From a virus: DNA of 64,000 nucleotides. Both the position numbers and the translations under genes were made by a program. Under the pieces are notes generated by a model, which worked only from the letters and a program-made list of their open reading frames with translations, had not been told where the DNA came from and made no database searches. The stretch spans positions 1-64,000 of the IMG/VR virus record IMGVR_UViG_3300040758_000047; one strand, written 5' to 3'. Position 1 is the stretch's first letter. The number at the start of each line of letters is the position of its first letter. Below, one piece after another: positions 43,047 through 55,141 of this stretch.

Positions 43047-44516
43047 TCAGAAAAGCGTCGAGGCGAGTTTGAAACAGGTCCGGGGGCTTGGCACCATTAG
43101 ATTTGAGCCGCTAAGGAACTGGCCGCTCACATCGATCGAGTTGTTCACGCCCTTGAATCCGGTAAACCCGAATTGAAACAGGTCTACCTGGGAGAAGTAC
43201 CACTCCACGTAGGCCGTGTTCAATCCGAACATCTTGCCGATCGGCGAGCTACCCGAAGGAAGATACCGCGAAATGACCACATCGGCGGCATTGAACCTGA
43301 AGTTCTGGAATCCCACGTTGGCCAGATCGTTGTCTTTATTCTCATACCGCATTGCAGGCTGCGTGCCCTGCCAGATCAAGTTCCAGCCGTTCTGTGTGAC
43401 CACTATCAGGTCCGGGTGATCCGAGCCCCAACAGGCGTTTCCATAGGCCGTGTTGAGTTGTGCCAAGGTGAACGTGGTCACCGTGGCCTGATAGGCATTC
43501 AGCCCGCCAACGGTGCCAGTCGTCAAACCATTGATATCGGTTCGGTTCTGGCCGCCGACTTGGGAGTAATTTGTTCCGTCGTCGATCCACTCATCAAATC
43601 CGTTCAGGTATTTAGCCCGCGCACCCTGCCCGTTCTGGTACATATTGACGGCCAGGATCTTCGCCATCTTCAATGAGGCGTTGAGGAACTTCATCTCTAC
43701 CTGATTGAAAATCGCCTCTTGGCCATCGTCGTTCATCGCGTCCCATCCGTATAGCGTGATGTTTACCCACGCTACCTTCAGGTCCACCGTGATCGCCGCG
43801 TCGGTCGTAACGAAGTTGATGTCCATCGTTTCGCCCTTGCCCATAAAATCGCCGAGGAGTTCCCCAACAATCACGGGCCTCCTTACGCGGCTGTTGCCCG
43901 CGAATCGTTCTGCTCTCTGCTGACTGAGCCTAGTAAATGCAGGATCTGCACCGTAGATGATCGTTCGTGTTGCGACCGGGTTCGCTATTCCCGGCCTTCT
44001 CACACTTTCATGTGAGACCAGACCATATCATCACCCCGAAGGGTGCCGCGCGCTTCCGAGCACTTGCCCGTACTCCCCGAAGGGATGGCCGTTGAACGTT
44101 CCCATTTCTGGGCTTCGCTGCTGATTACCCCGAAGGGCTTCCCAGCAATTCACGCGGTTTTCGAGGCGGCTTTCACCGCCAAGGGACTATCAGTTAATCC
44201 GTTGTCTTCTCTACGATGTAATCGTACACATCCTTGATGTTGCGACCGGGTTCGCTATTCCCGGCCTTCTGCAAGTTTCCCAGCAGAGCAGATCATCTCA
44301 TCGGCCCGCTTCGGGTCGCCTCGCGCTTCGGGCCGCTTGGCCCTACTCCCTCTCGGGATGATCGTTGAACCTTCCGACTCTCGTCGGCTTGGCTGCTGAT
44401 TGCCTTGCCCGCCAATTCGGGTTTAGGTGTCCCAGCAATTCACGAGGTTTGCATAACCGATCTCTCGGCTAAGGCCCTATGTCTAAGGCGTCCAGCTCCG
44501 TTAGCTGCAAGGCCAT
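43047..44516 (-). CDS. major capsid protein, spliced: join(44516-44486, 44231-44197, 43961-43047), 326 aa
   Basis: AGGAGG RBS then ATG 44516; removing two introns gives in-frame MALQLTELDAYVYDYIVEKTTDIIYGADPAFTRL...; located after scaffold; PDLIVVT and GFQNFRFN motifs. Confidence 0.88.
43962..44196 (-). ncRNA. group I intron 2 (235 nt, ORF-less, IA-like)
   Basis: P AAUUGCUGGGAA, Q AAUCAGCAG, R GUUCAACGGCCA, S GAUAUGGUCU; P1 exon GGAU/GUCC with U-G; P3 CCGCGUG/CGCGCGG; P7.1/7.2; terminal G; P10 UGAU/AUCA. Confidence 0.9.
43968..44270. repeat. 33-bp identical direct repeat (43968-44000 and 44238-44270) at the intron 3' ends
   Basis: TGTTGCGACCGGGTTCGCTATTCCCGGCCTTCT occurs twice. Confidence 0.93.
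44232..44485 (-). ncRNA. group I intron 1 (254 nt, ORF-less, IA-like)
   Basis: P AAUUGCUGGGA, Q AAUCAGCAG, R GUUCAACGAUCA, S GAGAUGAUCU; P1 exon GCCU/GGGC; P3 CCUCGUG/CGCGAGG; terminal G; P10 ACAU/AUGU. Confidence 0.9.
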
Positions 44517-44536
44517 TCTACGTACCTCCTATTTCA

Positions 44537-44565
44537 TTGACATTGAGTAGGGGTTGGCGTACACT
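44537..44565 (+). promoter_or_regulatory. leaderless promoter of the endonuclease gene
   Basis: TTGACA-17-TACACT, 6 nt before ATG 44572. Confidence 0.7.
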
Positions 44566-44571
44566 AAACGT

Positions 44572-45279
44572 ATGGAACAACCCCAGCAAACAAAGATCAG
44601 ACTGAGTACTCGCGTGTACAAGGCCTGTCCTCACTGCGGAGAACAACATTCCGCCAGAGAAATATGGCCGCACCGAAAACGGTGCGAGCTTAACCCTAAG
44701 AACCTGCCGAAGACGATAAAAGAGGCCCCAAAGAAAGGTCCGGGAATGCCTGTGTCTTGCAACTACTGCGGACACAAGACCGTGCAGTTGCTTCTTCAGA
44801 GACATTTCGCAACCTGCCCGAATATCACGATCCTCGAAGGACAGAAGGTCTGTACTATCTGCCAATCCATCCTGTCGATAGATGACTTTTCGGCTCATTG
44901 CAGATCTCCGGGCGGAAGAAGCAACATCTGCAAGAAGTGCGCCTGCGCGAGATCTACGACTTGGTATCACACGCCGAAGAATCACATGTCCCGTAGAGAA
45001 CGTATGGAATACAAACTCTACGGCCTCAGTCCAGAAGGACGAAAGTCCCTTGAGACTGCGCAGAACGGTCTGTGCGCCATTTGCGGTAAGCCGCCCAGCG
45101 GAGGACCGAAGAACGAGAGGCTGGCCGTCGATCACAATCACAATTTCCCCGGCACTCACCGAGCACTCCTTTGCGAGAAGTGCAATACAGGCCTCGGTGG
45201 GTTTTTGGACGACCCGGCCTTGCTCGTCAAGGCAATCGCTTACCTTGCGAGTCACCGAAAGATCGCCGCTGTTTCCTAG
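44572..45279 (+). CDS. endonuclease VII-motif (His-Me finger) free-standing homing endonuclease
   Basis: YGL..Q.GLCAICG..LAVDHNH..RALLCEKCNTGLG..DD..AIAYL; N-terminal zinc fingers. Confidence 0.9.
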   Translation: MEQPQQTKIRLSTRVYKACPHCGEQHSAREIWPHRKRCELNPKNLPKTIKEAPKKGPGMPVSCNYCGHKTVQLLLQRHFATCPNITILEGQKVCTICQSILSIDDFSAHCRSPGGRSNICKKCACARSTTWYHTPKNHMSRRERMEYKLYGLSPEGRKSLETAQNGLCAICGKPPSGGPKNERLAVDHNHNFPGTHRALLCEKCNTGLGGFLDDPALLVKAIAYLASHRKIAAVS

Positions 45280-45302
45280 CCTCATCTTGCCTTTCGGGAG
45301 CG

Positions 45303-47658: not shown

Positions 47659-49527
47659 CTATACGGGTGAGCCCTGTCGCTGACTTCTCGTTTGACGCGG
47701 CGTTCTTCCTGCACCCTTCGGCCCTCCACCAATACCCGCCTCGTGTTCTTTCTGCATTTCCTGTATGACAAGGTCTGCGTTCTCCGGGAATTCCGCTTGC
47801 CGATAAAGACCGTGAAGTGACAGAGCGCCCATCTTGAAATACGTGGCCGCCCTCACCTCCTTCTGCATTCTACTCGTTCCGTGAGTCGATCCAGGAGCGA
47901 TCTTCATACTGAATGCCCGCCAGAAATCCTCCTTCGGTGCCGAGGAAGGAACCATGGTCCCAGCGTCGTAATCGAAGTCTTCCGGCGTCATCCCGTCTGC
48001 CCCCAGCACTCTCATACGTCCGCTTAAAGTGGCGTACTGGAAGACGTTCGATACCATCTGTGACCCAGCTTCTTCTAATGCGATCTCAAGGTAGCGGCTT
48101 TCCAATTGGAATGGACCGCTCAACGTCTCCCTCATCTGTTCGATGGCTTCACCTCCCGGCACTTGCTTTTTCTTGGCGATGCCGGAGATGTCCAATGATC
48201 CAGAACGTTTCTTGATCGTCTCGACGAGATACCGGAGAAACTCTCCGATGTACGGAGGCAGATTCGGCGGGTCCATGTAGCGGAAGTCACCGGGTTGGGC
48301 GATTGGGTTCATCAGAATTTTTTGCGCCGGTTTAGCGGGTTGGAAGGCATCCCACACCACTTCGGCCATCGCACCACGCTTGCCCACTACGTTCAGGTTC
48401 AACGCTCTCTTTACGGCTTCCTCTACTCCGGCACCGATGCTATTCGTGGCTTGGCACTGTGGGATCAATCTTCGGTACTTCGAGATTCCACCGGGGCTCC
48501 ACACGCAGGGATTCAACTGAAGCATCGTGAAAGGATACAGTCCGTGCCAGAAGGGGCTTGGACCGTCGTACATGATCCGATCCCCGGCGAAAATCACCAG
48601 CCTCTTACGCGGGAATAATCTTGCTCCTGGGGGCACAAGATAGTGGTAATTGTACTGACTGGGATGAAGGTCCTGATTCTGAACGAACACTTCATTGCCA
48701 GATTCATTGATCGACCAATCGTCGAAATAGACCTCCTTCAACTCGATCACTGGGAACGGTACGTAGGTCCCTTCGGATTCTCGAACTGGACCGCCGCGCT
48801 GCGACATCTTGTGCTTCATGGCGGGACTCATCGCATTCCACGTGTACTCAGGCACGCTAGAAGGTCGAACGTACTTGTCCTGAGAAAGTGACCGGCTCAG
48901 GTTGACCGTGTACTTTTCCAGCCCTTGGCATTTCTCTTTGCCGAACTTGGCGTAGAAGTACGGGAGTGGTTTGTAGTTCTGATAGATGACCGCTGCCGAT
49001 TCCTGTATCTTTCCGTTACAGAGAACCGGAATCACCTGATCGGCCCCGTGCGCTGAAAACTGGAATTGGTTTTCTCCGGCTACGTGCTTCAGGAATCCTG
49101 TCCCAAATAGCGCATGGTCCAGCCACTCCACCACAATCGCATCCAGGTTCATGTTGAACCACAGCGACCGGATGTACTTGTGAACCGTCTCGGCTTGCTT
49201 TTTGTACGCCTCGACCGATGACGTGATGTCGATAGTAGGGCGGATCTGACTCAATGACGACAGGGCTTCTAAACGCATATCACCCATGTAATCGTCATAG
49301 TACTTTGACCTGTAGTCTGGACGTGTCGAGGGATACCAGTTGCCGTCCAAGTAGTCCAGGATTCTTTCGATCTCTTGCAGGTCCCGCCAAGAGCGCATTT
49401 CCTCCATCCCCTGGCGGAGAAGGGCGTCGCGCCAACCTAGAAGTTTTCTAGAGTATTGGTCAGGGAAATCGCGCGAGCCAGAATTGCGTTCGACGGATGC
49501 GCGAGGAACGATCGCTAACGAAGCCAT
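47659..49527 (-). CDS. portal protein
   Basis: 622 aa between TerL and scaffold; ALFGTGFLK, SPFWHGLYPF, Q..TN..and SG..DISG portal motifs. Confidence 0.85.
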   Translation of the reverse strand: MASLAIVPRASVERNSGSRDFPDQYSRKLLGWRDALLRQGMEEMRSWRDLQEIERILDYLDGNWYPSTRPDYRSKYYDDYMGDMRLEALSSLSQIRPTIDITSSVEAYKKQAETVHKYIRSLWFNMNLDAIVVEWLDHALFGTGFLKHVAGENQFQFSAHGADQVIPVLCNGKIQESAAVIYQNYKPLPYFYAKFGKEKCQGLEKYTVNLSRSLSQDKYVRPSSVPEYTWNAMSPAMKHKMSQRGGPVRESEGTYVPFPVIELKEVYFDDWSINESGNEVFVQNQDLHPSQYNYHYLVPPGARLFPRKRLVIFAGDRIMYDGPSPFWHGLYPFTMLQLNPCVWSPGGISKYRRLIPQCQATNSIGAGVEEAVKRALNLNVVGKRGAMAEVVWDAFQPAKPAQKILMNPIAQPGDFRYMDPPNLPPYIGEFLRYLVETIKKRSGSLDISGIAKKKQVPGGEAIEQMRETLSGPFQLESRYLEIALEEAGSQMVSNVFQYATLSGRMRVLGADGMTPEDFDYDAGTMVPSSAPKEDFWRAFSMKIAPGSTHGTSRMQKEVRAATYFKMGALSLHGLYRQAEFPENADLVIQEMQKEHEAGIGGGPKGAGRTPRQTRSQRQGSPV

Positions 49528-52894: not shown

Positions 52895-55141
52895 CTACAA
52901 GTCCTCAATCCTCGGTTCATAAGGCTGGCCTTCCGGCTTCTTCCCCATCAACGTCATCAGTCCTTCAAAACCCAACGAGTTGGGCAGTTGGATTTCCAGC
53001 GAAATAGCCTTCAGTTGGATCGAGCCGCATTGCGGACAACGGTATTCTCGTTCCGGGTTATCGCAGACCCACGGCCATTTGCCTTCCGAGTCCACCGTCT
53101 CCCCGTACCGGCAAGTCTGACAGTAACACCGATACCGCGCGGGCTTCTGGACTTCCACTACGCCTGGAACGCGAACGCGGCCTCCTTCGTCACAGTCCAT
53201 TTCATGGGCGCAGTAAAGAGAGATGAGACCGGCAAGGAGTTCGTCGTCGTGAAACGTTTCCTCAGCCCCGAAGGTCCGCGAGTCAGCCTCTTCTTTCCGG
53301 TAAGTGGTCATTTCCTCTGCAAAGTTTGCTGACCTAATTACCCAAGTGTGAGACAAGAGCCAGTCCACTCCCGTCTGATGAAGGTACGCCTTCGTATTCA
53401 CTTTGGTGTACCAATGCCATTTCCCGGACAAAGGGTGCAGGGAGTCCAGATGTTTCCACCGGAAGACATTTGGGTACTGATAAAAAATCAGCACATCGTC
53501 ACCAACAGTCTGATAGACGTTGTACTCGATGCACATCAAGGCGTCGTTGTACCACCTTCCAATGACGTTACAGTAGAAGGCCAATTCCTTGGGCTTGGTG
53601 TGGTTATCCCTCCAGACCGCCACTTGCTCATCGGGCTGGCCAAACTTACCGATCTTGTTGACGAAGATCACACTGTAGTCTTGGCCGATTCCTTCGCTCG
53701 GGTCCACTCCAACTGAGTACTCAACGCCCAGTAGCGGCTCCTCCCAGACCCAAAAAGGGGTCTCGTCTTGGCGATGATCGACATTGCACCCCTTGATGTA
53801 ACACCGGCCATCTTCTCCGCCCGCCCCGTGGATTTCGCCGGTTTCCCGATAAATCTTTCCCTTCCTGACTGGATTCCGATCTACGGTCGAATTCACCCAC
53901 TCGCGGCAGGCATCGTTGAACATCACGAAACCACTTACCTGCCAAGCGTCCTCGGCGGTGACGGCCATTTCCTGAAGCCACTGTTTCTTGGCCTTCTCCC
54001 CCTGTTCTTCAGCTTGCTCGCGGTTGTCCTGATGCCAATAGCATTGCTCGTCCGTCAGCACCATCGGTTGCAAGGTTCCCGTGTCACAGTCGGGGCACTT
54101 TGCTCCACTGACCGATTCTCCGAATAACGCGGCTTTGCGCCACTTCCGACAATTCGCGCACGTCAGCCATTCCTTCTTGGCCCGCTCCCGCATCAGTCTC
54201 TCTGGTTCTTGAATGCACCAACCGTTCGGAGGAGCCAGAACTCTGGTTGTCTCGAAGAAGCTCGGAAGAAACAGTGGATACCAACGTGGCCATTTGCCTT
54301 GATCCATACGCCGCTCACACGCTCTCCAGATTCGATGCGCAGCGGTTCCGGCTCCTTCACCCGTCCCTTCGATGAATCCGAAGACTTGCGGTTTATCAGC
54401 CATCGAGTTGCCTAAATCGGCGTTGACAATGCGCTCTAAGTCGTCCTCAAGGTAGCCACAAAACTCTGAGACGTGGGCCGCGTCTACAGCGATCCCTTGT
54501 CCTACTCCAGAGTATTGGTTCGACCATTGCACCATTACACGAGAGTTCATGCCAGGATGTCTTAAACGGAGTAGCGGGTCCTCATTCTCGAAGAATAAGC
54601 CCGTCTCTTCTTTACGGCTGGACTGCATCGGCTTCAACCACCACGGCATGTTGTCGTAGATGTACAGCATATAGCCGAATAAGTAAGAAGAGTGCGCCCG
54701 ATCAACCGAGACTACGATGGCTCTCGTATTTGGAAAGAACATCGCCCGCCAAGCGATCATCGCTTCAATCAAAGTCGAGCAGCCCAATTGGCGAGCTTTC
54801 AAAATCAAAATCTTCTGTGCTCTGCCCTTGGCCTTCAGTTCGTAGTACTTATCGAGAATGATGAACTGGCTTTCCCAGAGTGATAGGAGTTGTCGCTTCA
54901 GTTCCTTCGTAGTGATCCAGAAGTAATTTCTCGCGGCGTAGCTGAAATCGTTTCGGCAGGCACGGGCTTGTTCGACGATGGCCGCTTTGAGCTTCTTCCC
55001 GTCAGCCAACCCCTCAATCAGTTCAAATCTTTCGATAGAGGGGATCAGGTCCCAGTCTTCTTCCCTAATCTTCAGTTTTAAGGGGAGGTCCCGATCCAAG
55101 TACTCGATCATGGCGGATACGCCAGGGTCGCGTCGCCACAT
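52895..55141 (-). CDS. terL: terminase large subunit
   Basis: Walker A ILKARQLGCST, Walker B AHVSEF, nuclease VGVDPSEG..DYS, IEYN and HDD. Confidence 0.95.
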   Translation of the reverse strand: MWRRDPGVSAMIEYLDRDLPLKLKIREEDWDLIPSIERFELIEGLADGKKLKAAIVEQARACRNDFSYAARNYFWITTKELKRQLLSLWESQFIILDKYYELKAKGRAQKILILKARQLGCSTLIEAMIAWRAMFFPNTRAIVVSVDRAHSSYLFGYMLYIYDNMPWWLKPMQSSRKEETGLFFENEDPLLRLRHPGMNSRVMVQWSNQYSGVGQGIAVDAAHVSEFCGYLEDDLERIVNADLGNSMADKPQVFGFIEGTGEGAGTAAHRIWRACERRMDQGKWPRWYPLFLPSFFETTRVLAPPNGWCIQEPERLMRERAKKEWLTCANCRKWRKAALFGESVSGAKCPDCDTGTLQPMVLTDEQCYWHQDNREQAEEQGEKAKKQWLQEMAVTAEDAWQVSGFVMFNDACREWVNSTVDRNPVRKGKIYRETGEIHGAGGEDGRCYIKGCNVDHRQDETPFWVWEEPLLGVEYSVGVDPSEGIGQDYSVIFVNKIGKFGQPDEQVAVWRDNHTKPKELAFYCNVIGRWYNDALMCIEYNVYQTVGDDVLIFYQYPNVFRWKHLDSLHPLSGKWHWYTKVNTKAYLHQTGVDWLLSHTWVIRSANFAEEMTTYRKEEADSRTFGAEETFHDDELLAGLISLYCAHEMDCDEGGRVRVPGVVEVQKPARYRCYCQTCRYGETVDSEGKWPWVCDNPEREYRCPQCGSIQLKAISLEIQLPNSLGFEGLMTLMGKKPEGQPYEPRIEDL

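Follow-up and report, generated by a model that had tools for sequence, protein, structure and literature searches.

The closest described relatives of the arrangement reported here come from four quite different sources. The tail tube gene of Staphylococcus phage Twort, orf142, is split by three group I introns (PMC10136302, PMC11878797). In the 23S rRNA gene of Coxiella burnetii, two group I introns flank a 34-nt exon, skipping of which has been observed (cited in PMC10136302). In the Delta and Zeta groups of crAss-like phages, major capsid genes contain one or several group I introns, so that genes of this type are not exempt from them (PMC7886860). And in cyanophage S-PM2, an intron of the psbA gene that contains no open reading frame (ORF) has been shown experimentally to engage in ‘collaborative homing’ with the endonuclease F-CphI, which cuts the intronless allele while the intron blocks self-cleavage (PMC6083498, PMC3984707). 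We describe here a major capsid gene that is split near its 5' end by two ORF-less group I introns, I1 and I2, with a micro-exon between them, and that is adjoined by a divergent gene for a free-standing endonuclease of the Endo VII/DHHRN type. The gene lies in a stretch of 64,000 nt of viral DNA (‘the window’; positions 1 to 64,000 of IMG/VR record IMGVR_UViG_3300040758_000047), which belongs to a virus record that is complete at 96,503 bp and has direct terminal repeats. In the explanation that we consider best, and to which we give a probability of about 0.7, the introns are self-splicing and are selfish passengers that move together with the adjacent endonuclease.

An earlier note on this DNA, made from the letters alone, had likened the gene to Twort orf142, and the comparison is apt (PMC10136302, PMC11878797). 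Both are late structural genes with clustered, ORF-less, IA-type introns, and in both, a very short exon—23 nt in Twort, 35 nt here—stands between two similar introns and could be skipped. They differ in that the gene here specifies the major head protein, not a tail tube, and has two introns, not three; in that the guides, P10, P2, P7 and P9 of the introns here are differentiated, which should favor exon inclusion; and in that a free-standing endonuclease adjoins the gene. The Coxiella exon belongs to a bacterial rRNA gene that codes for no protein, and the introns around it are of subgroups IB2 and IA3 (PMC10136302). As in the crAss-like phages, we are dealing with a metagenomic find of group I introns in a major capsid gene, but theirs were recognized through intron-encoded endonuclease domains, whereas ours are ORF-less (PMC7886860), and the phage lineage and the capsid family (here phrog_9953, distantly like Mx8 and Mx9) are different ones. 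The endonuclease resembles F-CphI in its C-terminal Endo VII motif and in retaining the DHHRN residues (PMC6083498), a likeness of motif. Unlike the psbA system of S-PM2, the host gene is a capsid gene with two introns instead of one, the introns of relatives occupy six sites near the same endonuclease position, and homing is proposed from sequence comparison. Capsid introns, tandem introns with a micro-exon, and introns beside free-standing endonucleases are thus each of a kind already known. The value of the locus is that of a clean case with comparative material: it shows plainly that introns can reside in a phage's most highly expressed structural gene and, together with its relatives, it supplies natural before-and-after genomes in which to study how an endonuclease may drive the spread of an ORF-less intron, as well as alternative insertion sites with matched guides, such that site gain by group I introns, and their cooperation with endonucleases, become testable with a few defined sequences.

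The two inserts are group I introns with a conserved fold, and their boundaries can be stated exactly. The Rfam model RF00028 (gathering score, 50 bits) matches I2 at 43999–44206 (82.2 bits, E 2e-19) and I1 at 44269–44495 (51.8 bits, E 3e-10), in each case over the full model, positions 1–253; these are the sole matches in the window, the whole 96.5-kb genome has no others, and they lie where the earlier note had placed its introns. The elements that it had read from the sequence are present in both inserts: a P1 with a U.G pair at the 5' splice site (GCCU/AGGGC in I1; GGAU/AGUCC in I2), a 4-bp P10 with the next exon (ACAU/AUGU and UGAU/AUCA, respectively), P7.1 and P7.2 hairpins, and a terminal G, together with the P7 pseudoknot. 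A segment of ~31 nt beyond the Rfam consensus, between P7 and P3', consists of the two covarying hairpins, P7.1 and P7.2, and these place the introns in subgroup IA. Neither intron contains a listed ORF of 60 or more amino acids (aa).

Relatives were sought among viral and metagenome contigs, in part by a profile scan of viral contigs. This gave 122 related loci (numbered L003 and so forth), which were screened with Rfam, with an nhmmer profile of the intron family, and with tblastn for the endonuclease. In DNA alignments, I1 is a clean insertion with respect to L003–L006, L009 and L010, and I2 with respect to the intronless alleles L003–L005, L009 and L010. The junctions against L003–L005 read …GACGC(C/A)T-A(T/C)GT… and …ACGGA(T/C)-ATCATC…, where the hyphen marks the insertion, and so the intronless alleles fix the splice sites independently; alignment to such alleles, which the earlier note had proposed as a check, finds both inserts to be exact insertions. 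The fold itself was examined in an alignment of eight members of the family, two from the window and six from relatives, that are 62–78% identical. In these, 96.9% of cells are paired, and 38 of the 66 pairs have changed on both sides. Such changes occur in every helix, the conserved core P3–P8 and its P3/P7 pseudoknot included; in P7, one finds GAUCA/UGAUC, GGCCA/UGGUC and GACUA/UAGUC. The P7 helices are thus normal variants that covary, and there is nothing non-canonical about them. None of 500 shuffles reaches the observed value, and slid partners give only 31–45% paired.

The gene that the introns interrupt stands last in a head module on the minus strand, after the TerL, portal and scaffold-like genes (Table 1). 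Sequence reading and Rfam bear out all of the positions and lengths that had been proposed for its ribosome-binding site (RBS), ATG, exons (E1, E2 and E3) and introns. When 31, 35 and 915 nt are joined, the result stays open over 326 codons, MALQLTELDA-YVYDYIVEKTTD-IIYGADP, just as predicted. The earlier note was right, too, that the ORF list had missed this gene: the database protein from the same DNA (P0001) is a truncation of 275 aa that begins at MIVGELLGD. The E3 ORF matches phrog_9953, ‘major head protein’ (E 6e-17), an identity with which the gene's place in the head module agrees, and tblastn gives weak matches to the annotated major capsid proteins of Mx8, Mx9, BUCT555 and ppBjS10J-1. 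Pfam has no family for the capsid protein or for the scaffold-like protein; the latter has no other family hit either, and a scaffold function is suggested by its position. The phrog_9953 match starts at position 74 of the profile but residue 46 of the ORF, from which it follows that the main ORF is short of ~28 N-terminal residues. These are what the upstream exons supply. There are 239 homologues; most of the 120 inspected are 322–328 aa long, and their N-termini, M-A/S-L-x-L-T-E-L-D-A-Y-V-x-x-x-I-V-x-K-T-T-D-x-I-Y, correspond to the N-terminus predicted from splicing. The first 29 residues of the spliced protein agree with uninterrupted homologues, and the N-terminal 22 are kept among homologues down to ~50% identity. 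Homologous capsids that began near 44003 and lacked MALQ…TTD would have told against the reconstruction; the uninterrupted homologues carry this N-terminus instead. Several database proteins have odd N-termini (…PVAT…) that are translated intron. Automatic annotation, then, cuts the capsid protein short here and does as badly or worse in many relatives, and such truncated calls mislead protein clustering, structure prediction and phage classification.

Table 1. Features of the capsid locus in the window, and insertion sites of the intron family in the capsid genes of relatives
Feature	Position	Strand	Remarks
Shine-Dalgarno AGGAGG	44525–44530	−	8 nt 5' of capsid start; aligned in L003–L006
Capsid start codon ATG	44516	−	from sequence reading
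Exon 1 (E1)	44486–44516	−	31 nt; MALQLTELDA + first base of Tyr11 codon
Intron 1 (I1)	44232–44485	−	254 nt; in codon 11, phase 1, site B; ORF-less IA-type group I
Exon 2 (E2), micro-exon	44197–44231	−	35 nt; completes Tyr11 and codes for VYDYIVEKTTD
Intron 2 (I2)	43962–44196	−	235 nt; after codon 22, phase 0, site E; ORF-less IA-type group I
Intron 2 3' segment (P9.1 + tail)	43962–43996	−	identical to intron 1 ~44232–44266
Exon 3 (E3)	43047–43961	−	main body of major head protein; 304 codons + stop (915 nt)
Endo VII/DHHRN-type free-standing endonuclease gene	44554–45279	+	divergent from capsid gene; start TTG 44554 or ATG 44572
Scaffold-like gene, 307 aa	45303–46226	−	upstream neighbor of cassette; conserved beside capsid gene in relatives
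Portal gene	47659–49527	−	head module
TerL gene	52895–55141	−	head module
Site A			after codon 9; L012
Site B			in codon 11; window I1, L027
Site C			after codon 14; L032, L041/L044
Site D			after codon 19; L020
Site E			after codon 22; window I2, L006 group (L006–L008), L031, L056
Site F			about codon 52; L057

Both introns are very probably active ribozymes, and their removal would be needed for full capsid protein to be made. Covariation of the fold argues for this, and so do the exons and the stops. Between the window and L004, the two micro-exons E1 and E2 differ by 10 synonymous codons and one non-synonymous codon, a conservative E/D exchange; in E1, every differing codon outside the start codon is synonymous. 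This disproportion points to purifying selection, and hence to micro-exons that are translated as capsid protein. The first codon of I2 is an in-frame TAA and, in I1, a TAG occurs in frame five codons in; all phase-0 introns of the family open with an in-frame TAA or TGA. In-frame stops at the start of the intron are a recognized trait of phage introns (PMC3984707), and in these positions they would halt ribosomes on unspliced RNA. That the capsid protein depends on two splicing events, as the earlier note proposed, can thus be soundly inferred from the sequence.

In outline, each ribozyme would fold after transcription, its guide pairing with the end of the upstream exon and the U.G wobble marking the 5' splice site. 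External guanosine would attack there, and the freed exon would then attack beyond the intron's terminal G. Two such reactions would ligate the three exons into an mRNA for the 326-aa protein. Were E2 to be skipped, the frame would shift, as had been foreseen, and the product would be a peptide of 20 aa. Skipping calls for cross pairings that are clearly inferior to the cognate P1 and P10, and I1 and I2 display compensatory differences in P2, P7 and P9, besides those in guides and P10. Work on engineered tandem introns indicates that such differentiation favors exon inclusion (PMC10136302).

The adjacent endonuclease gene occupies the space between the scaffold-like and capsid genes, on the opposite strand, and codes for a protein of 241 aa. 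It begins 38–56 nt from the capsid start, depending on the start codon chosen; in relatives that lack it, 49 nt separate the scaffold-like stop from the capsid start. Residues 154–232 make up a C-terminal Endo VII domain (PF02945; E 4e-18, 65 bits against a cut-off of 23.6), the sole one in the genome. The protein matches phrog_2633 (E 3e-30), and its best solved relative is Hpy99I (E 1e-9), with which it shares CxxC..DHNH..R..CxxCN. The catalytic and zinc residues listed for DHHRN enzymes (CX2-4C, D-H-x-H, R and CX2C-N; PMC6083498) are found as CAIC … VDHNH … HRALLCEKCN, and the Endo VII motif is retained in all 10 of 10 neighboring homologues.

Introns and endonuclease go together. When loci are clustered into lineages at 90% or more nucleotide identity, the adjacent divergent endonuclease is found in 7 of 7 intron-bearing lineages whose upstream region is known, versus 4 of 47 intronless ones. 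Two complete intron-bearing relatives have one capsid intron and the adjacent endonuclease each, and Endo VII genes and group I introns are both absent from the entire genomes of three relatives that are 100%, 94% and 82% complete. How the pair might move is suggested by L041 and L044, which carry the endonuclease and a site-C intron, and L004, which carries neither. Up to a point 17 nt beyond the scaffold stop, L041 and L004 agree at 100%; there they part, and L041 continues into the endonuclease gene. Past the intron region, the first 75 nt are 74% identical, the next 75 nt 91%, and the remainder of the gene 97–100%; over those first 75 nt, L041 is 86% identical to L006. Judged from these identities, what was copied into an L004-like genome is one contiguous cassette that takes in the endonuclease, the intron-bearing 5' end of the capsid gene and ~100 nt of exon. 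Sharp edges of this sort are the footprint to be expected from double-strand-break repair with co-conversion, which is to say, homing. This transfer is seen in a relative; no equally close, cassette-free partner of the window was found. Within the window, positions 43737–43811 (nt 151–225 of E3) are 95% identical to L006 and nt 226–300 are 91% identical, while identity elsewhere is 72–85%, a mosaic that suggests past recombination near the intron region.

The introns themselves form one ORF-less family, 235–270 nt long, that occupies at least six sites within the first ~52 codons (~150 nt) of the capsid gene (Table 1). Every intron has a guide that fits its own site. The pair GGAU/AGUCC is common to site A (L012) and site E (window I2, L006, L031 and L056), and CGAU/AGUCG is common to site C (L032 and L041) and site F (L057). 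The L027 intron falls below the Rfam gathering threshold, yet scores 154 bits with the family-specific nhmmer profile. The closest relatives of the window, L003–L005, have the same gene order and 88–89% protein identity, and are intronless. The core of I1 is nearest to the site-C intron of L041 (86–88%), and that of I2 to the site-E intron of L006; with each other, I1 and I2 share 68–76% identity in the core, but their 3' ~30 nt are identical (29 of 29 aligned positions). Because the tails are identical although the cores have diverged, and each core is nearer to another phage's intron, the shared 3' segment points to homogenization by gene conversion within the genome. A recent tandem duplication of the window introns was considered and rejected on the same divergence of the cores. 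With introns of isolated phages, which reside in polymerase and terminase genes, the family has only the ribozyme core in common (70–77% over ~140 nt).

It is likely, then, that the introns are selfish elements that spread with the Endo VII/DHHRN endonuclease in a collaborative homing arrangement. The two would travel together between genomes: the candidate homing endonuclease would cut capsid alleles that lack the cassette, and repair would copy endonuclease, intron and flanking exon into the cut genome. The intron would also disrupt the enzyme's target in its own genome. Of the hallmarks of collaborative homing, an ORF-less intron beside a free-standing, homing-type endonuclease gene is found in the window, and in relatives, not in the window itself, one sees that endonuclease and intron were transferred together and flanking exon was co-converted. 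Presence/absence and site polymorphism (A–F), association with the endonuclease, and cassette transfer all favor a selfish over a regulatory role. Several points pull the other way. Splicing is read from the sequence, and not observed, and we infer the endonuclease's cleavage specificity and the protection that the intron confers. The association, by Fisher's one-sided test, has p 1.9e-6, and 7e-4 within the close clade, but these values ignore kinship and are indicative only, since the lineages are not phylogenetically independent. Four lineages (L009, L014, L092 and L106) carry the endonuclease beside an uninterrupted capsid gene, which means that the intron is not required for carriage, and that some other means of self-protection must exist. 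A scan for promoters and terminators near the endonuclease found 2 and 4 sites, where shuffles give 1.7 and 3.5, and thus gives no evidence that the endonuclease has a promoter. A maximum-likelihood tree of 11 introns has no supported fork, and so yields no order of events. And homing to the same site does not, by itself, explain six sites; a further process is needed.

Other explanations have their attractions. The earlier note had raised the possibility of a timing switch, in which splicing, by limiting the rate or by responding to conditions, would govern when the main virion protein is made, or how much of it. The introns do lie at the extreme 5' end of a highly expressed late gene, their in-frame stops tie translation strictly to splicing, and exon skipping, known in Twort orf142 (PMC10136302, PMC11878797), would abort the protein. 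We nevertheless find a regulatory device quite improbable. The intronless L003–L005 have the same head module; other relatives have a single intron, or introns at different sites; and intron presence tracks a mobile endonuclease and a transferred cassette, all of which is the pattern of a selfish element and lends the switch no support. Neither a conserved regulatory element nor a protein partner came to light, and the cognate P1/P10 pairings would be preferred to those needed for skipping. Harder still to credit is that the inserts have decayed and lost the ability to splice, with translation of the capsid protein beginning internally (at GTG 44003, for example, or at the Met of MIVGELLGD) and its first 22–51 residues missing. 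Gene callers do output truncated ORFs of this kind (P0001), and in the L041/L044 intron A replaces the terminal G, but compensatory changes maintain the ribozyme fold, E1 and E2 are intact, under purifying selection and preceded by a strong RBS, and the internal starts have none. The conservation of the N-terminal 22 residues in homologues as distant as ~50% identity speaks against decay as well, and capsid peptides spanning the junctions (MALQLTELDAYVYDYIVEKTTDIIY) would be at odds with it.

Two further alternatives concern the endonuclease. It could be the phage's own Holliday-junction resolvase or packaging nuclease, in the manner of T4 gp49, and have nothing to do with the introns: it is the genome's only PF02945 gene, and true resolvases do occur in the family (PMC6083498). 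This we judge improbable. The three relatives described above, 82–100% complete, lack any PF02945 gene, which makes the enzyme dispensable in this group of phages and argues against a resolvase role. The domain is C-terminal, following a Cys-rich N-terminal extension, in the style of the ‘endonuclease clade’ rather than of the resolvase clade (PMC6083498), and the gene is antisense in a late operon, sporadic among near-identical backbones, and moves with the intron. Alternatively, the endonuclease might be a mere neighbor, and movement mainly an affair of RNA, through reverse splicing at guide-complementary sites, reverse transcription and recombination. The same target/guide pairs do recur at different places (A and E; C and F), and when one gene has related introns at more than one site, this has classically been taken as circumstantial evidence for reverse splicing (PMC3984707). 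No reverse transcriptase turned up, though none was searched for, and both the 7/7 association and a cassette moved as DNA, with co-converted exon, are left unexplained. As the principal route, RNA-level movement is therefore unlikely; it may well act alongside homing, not in its stead.

Selfish spread with the endonuclease can be combined with such movement in a way that would account for the six sites, and we offer the combination tentatively, as a possibility on the doubtful side. A single intron family would repeatedly re-target itself within the 5' end of the capsid gene by guide-directed hops akin to reverse splicing, each followed by endonuclease-driven spread. The endonuclease would have a long recognition site that insertion at any of the six positions disrupts, and I1 and I2 would be independent ‘immunity’ insertions, possibly against endonuclease variants that differ in specificity. 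If this is how matters stand, it would be the first protein-coding, phage-borne system to join site switching at the level of RNA with collaborative homing at the level of DNA.

Some smaller observations deserve record. The site-C intron of L041 and L044 (L041:1068-1085, L044:236-253) ends in A where other members of the family end in G (…CACTAAGA-CACATCG). It has no compensating change in P7, it is seen in two contigs, and protein cluster P0003, with 37 members, is its read-through product. In L032, a second interruption of ~790 nt (L032:1354-2146) lies late in the capsid gene; its removal restores …EW-YFSK…, it is preceded by U, and it ends …AACATAAGCG. This insert contains a co-oriented ORF of 237 aa with a LAGLIDADG-like stretch (LAAMLECEGCF) and no Pfam family; probably, the insert is a group I intron that harbors an ORF and escapes detection by Rfam. 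A more distant relative, L101, has an intron-like element (L101:2400-3000; a weak 20 bits with the family profile) with an ORF ahead of it, just before capsid residue ~94, and no Endo VII gene nearby; possibly, this is a different, endonuclease-encoding intron.

Around the endonuclease gene of the window, a 255-aa ORF (44518-45285, minus strand) runs antisense across the whole of the gene; it is without family support and, the gene being GC-rich, is probably a shadow ORF. On the late-gene strand at 44668-44687 (minus), between the scaffold-like and capsid genes and antisense within the endonuclease gene, lies a hairpin that resembles a terminator and has a T-run; such sites are no more numerous than in shuffles. 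The L020 genome (G005) has a second, weak Endo VII-like match at 67052-67294 (minus), below the cut-off at 21.7 bits and far from the capsid gene. Finally, L012 has an array of ten tRNA genes (L012:5800-7406), ~1.8 kb downstream of its capsid gene.

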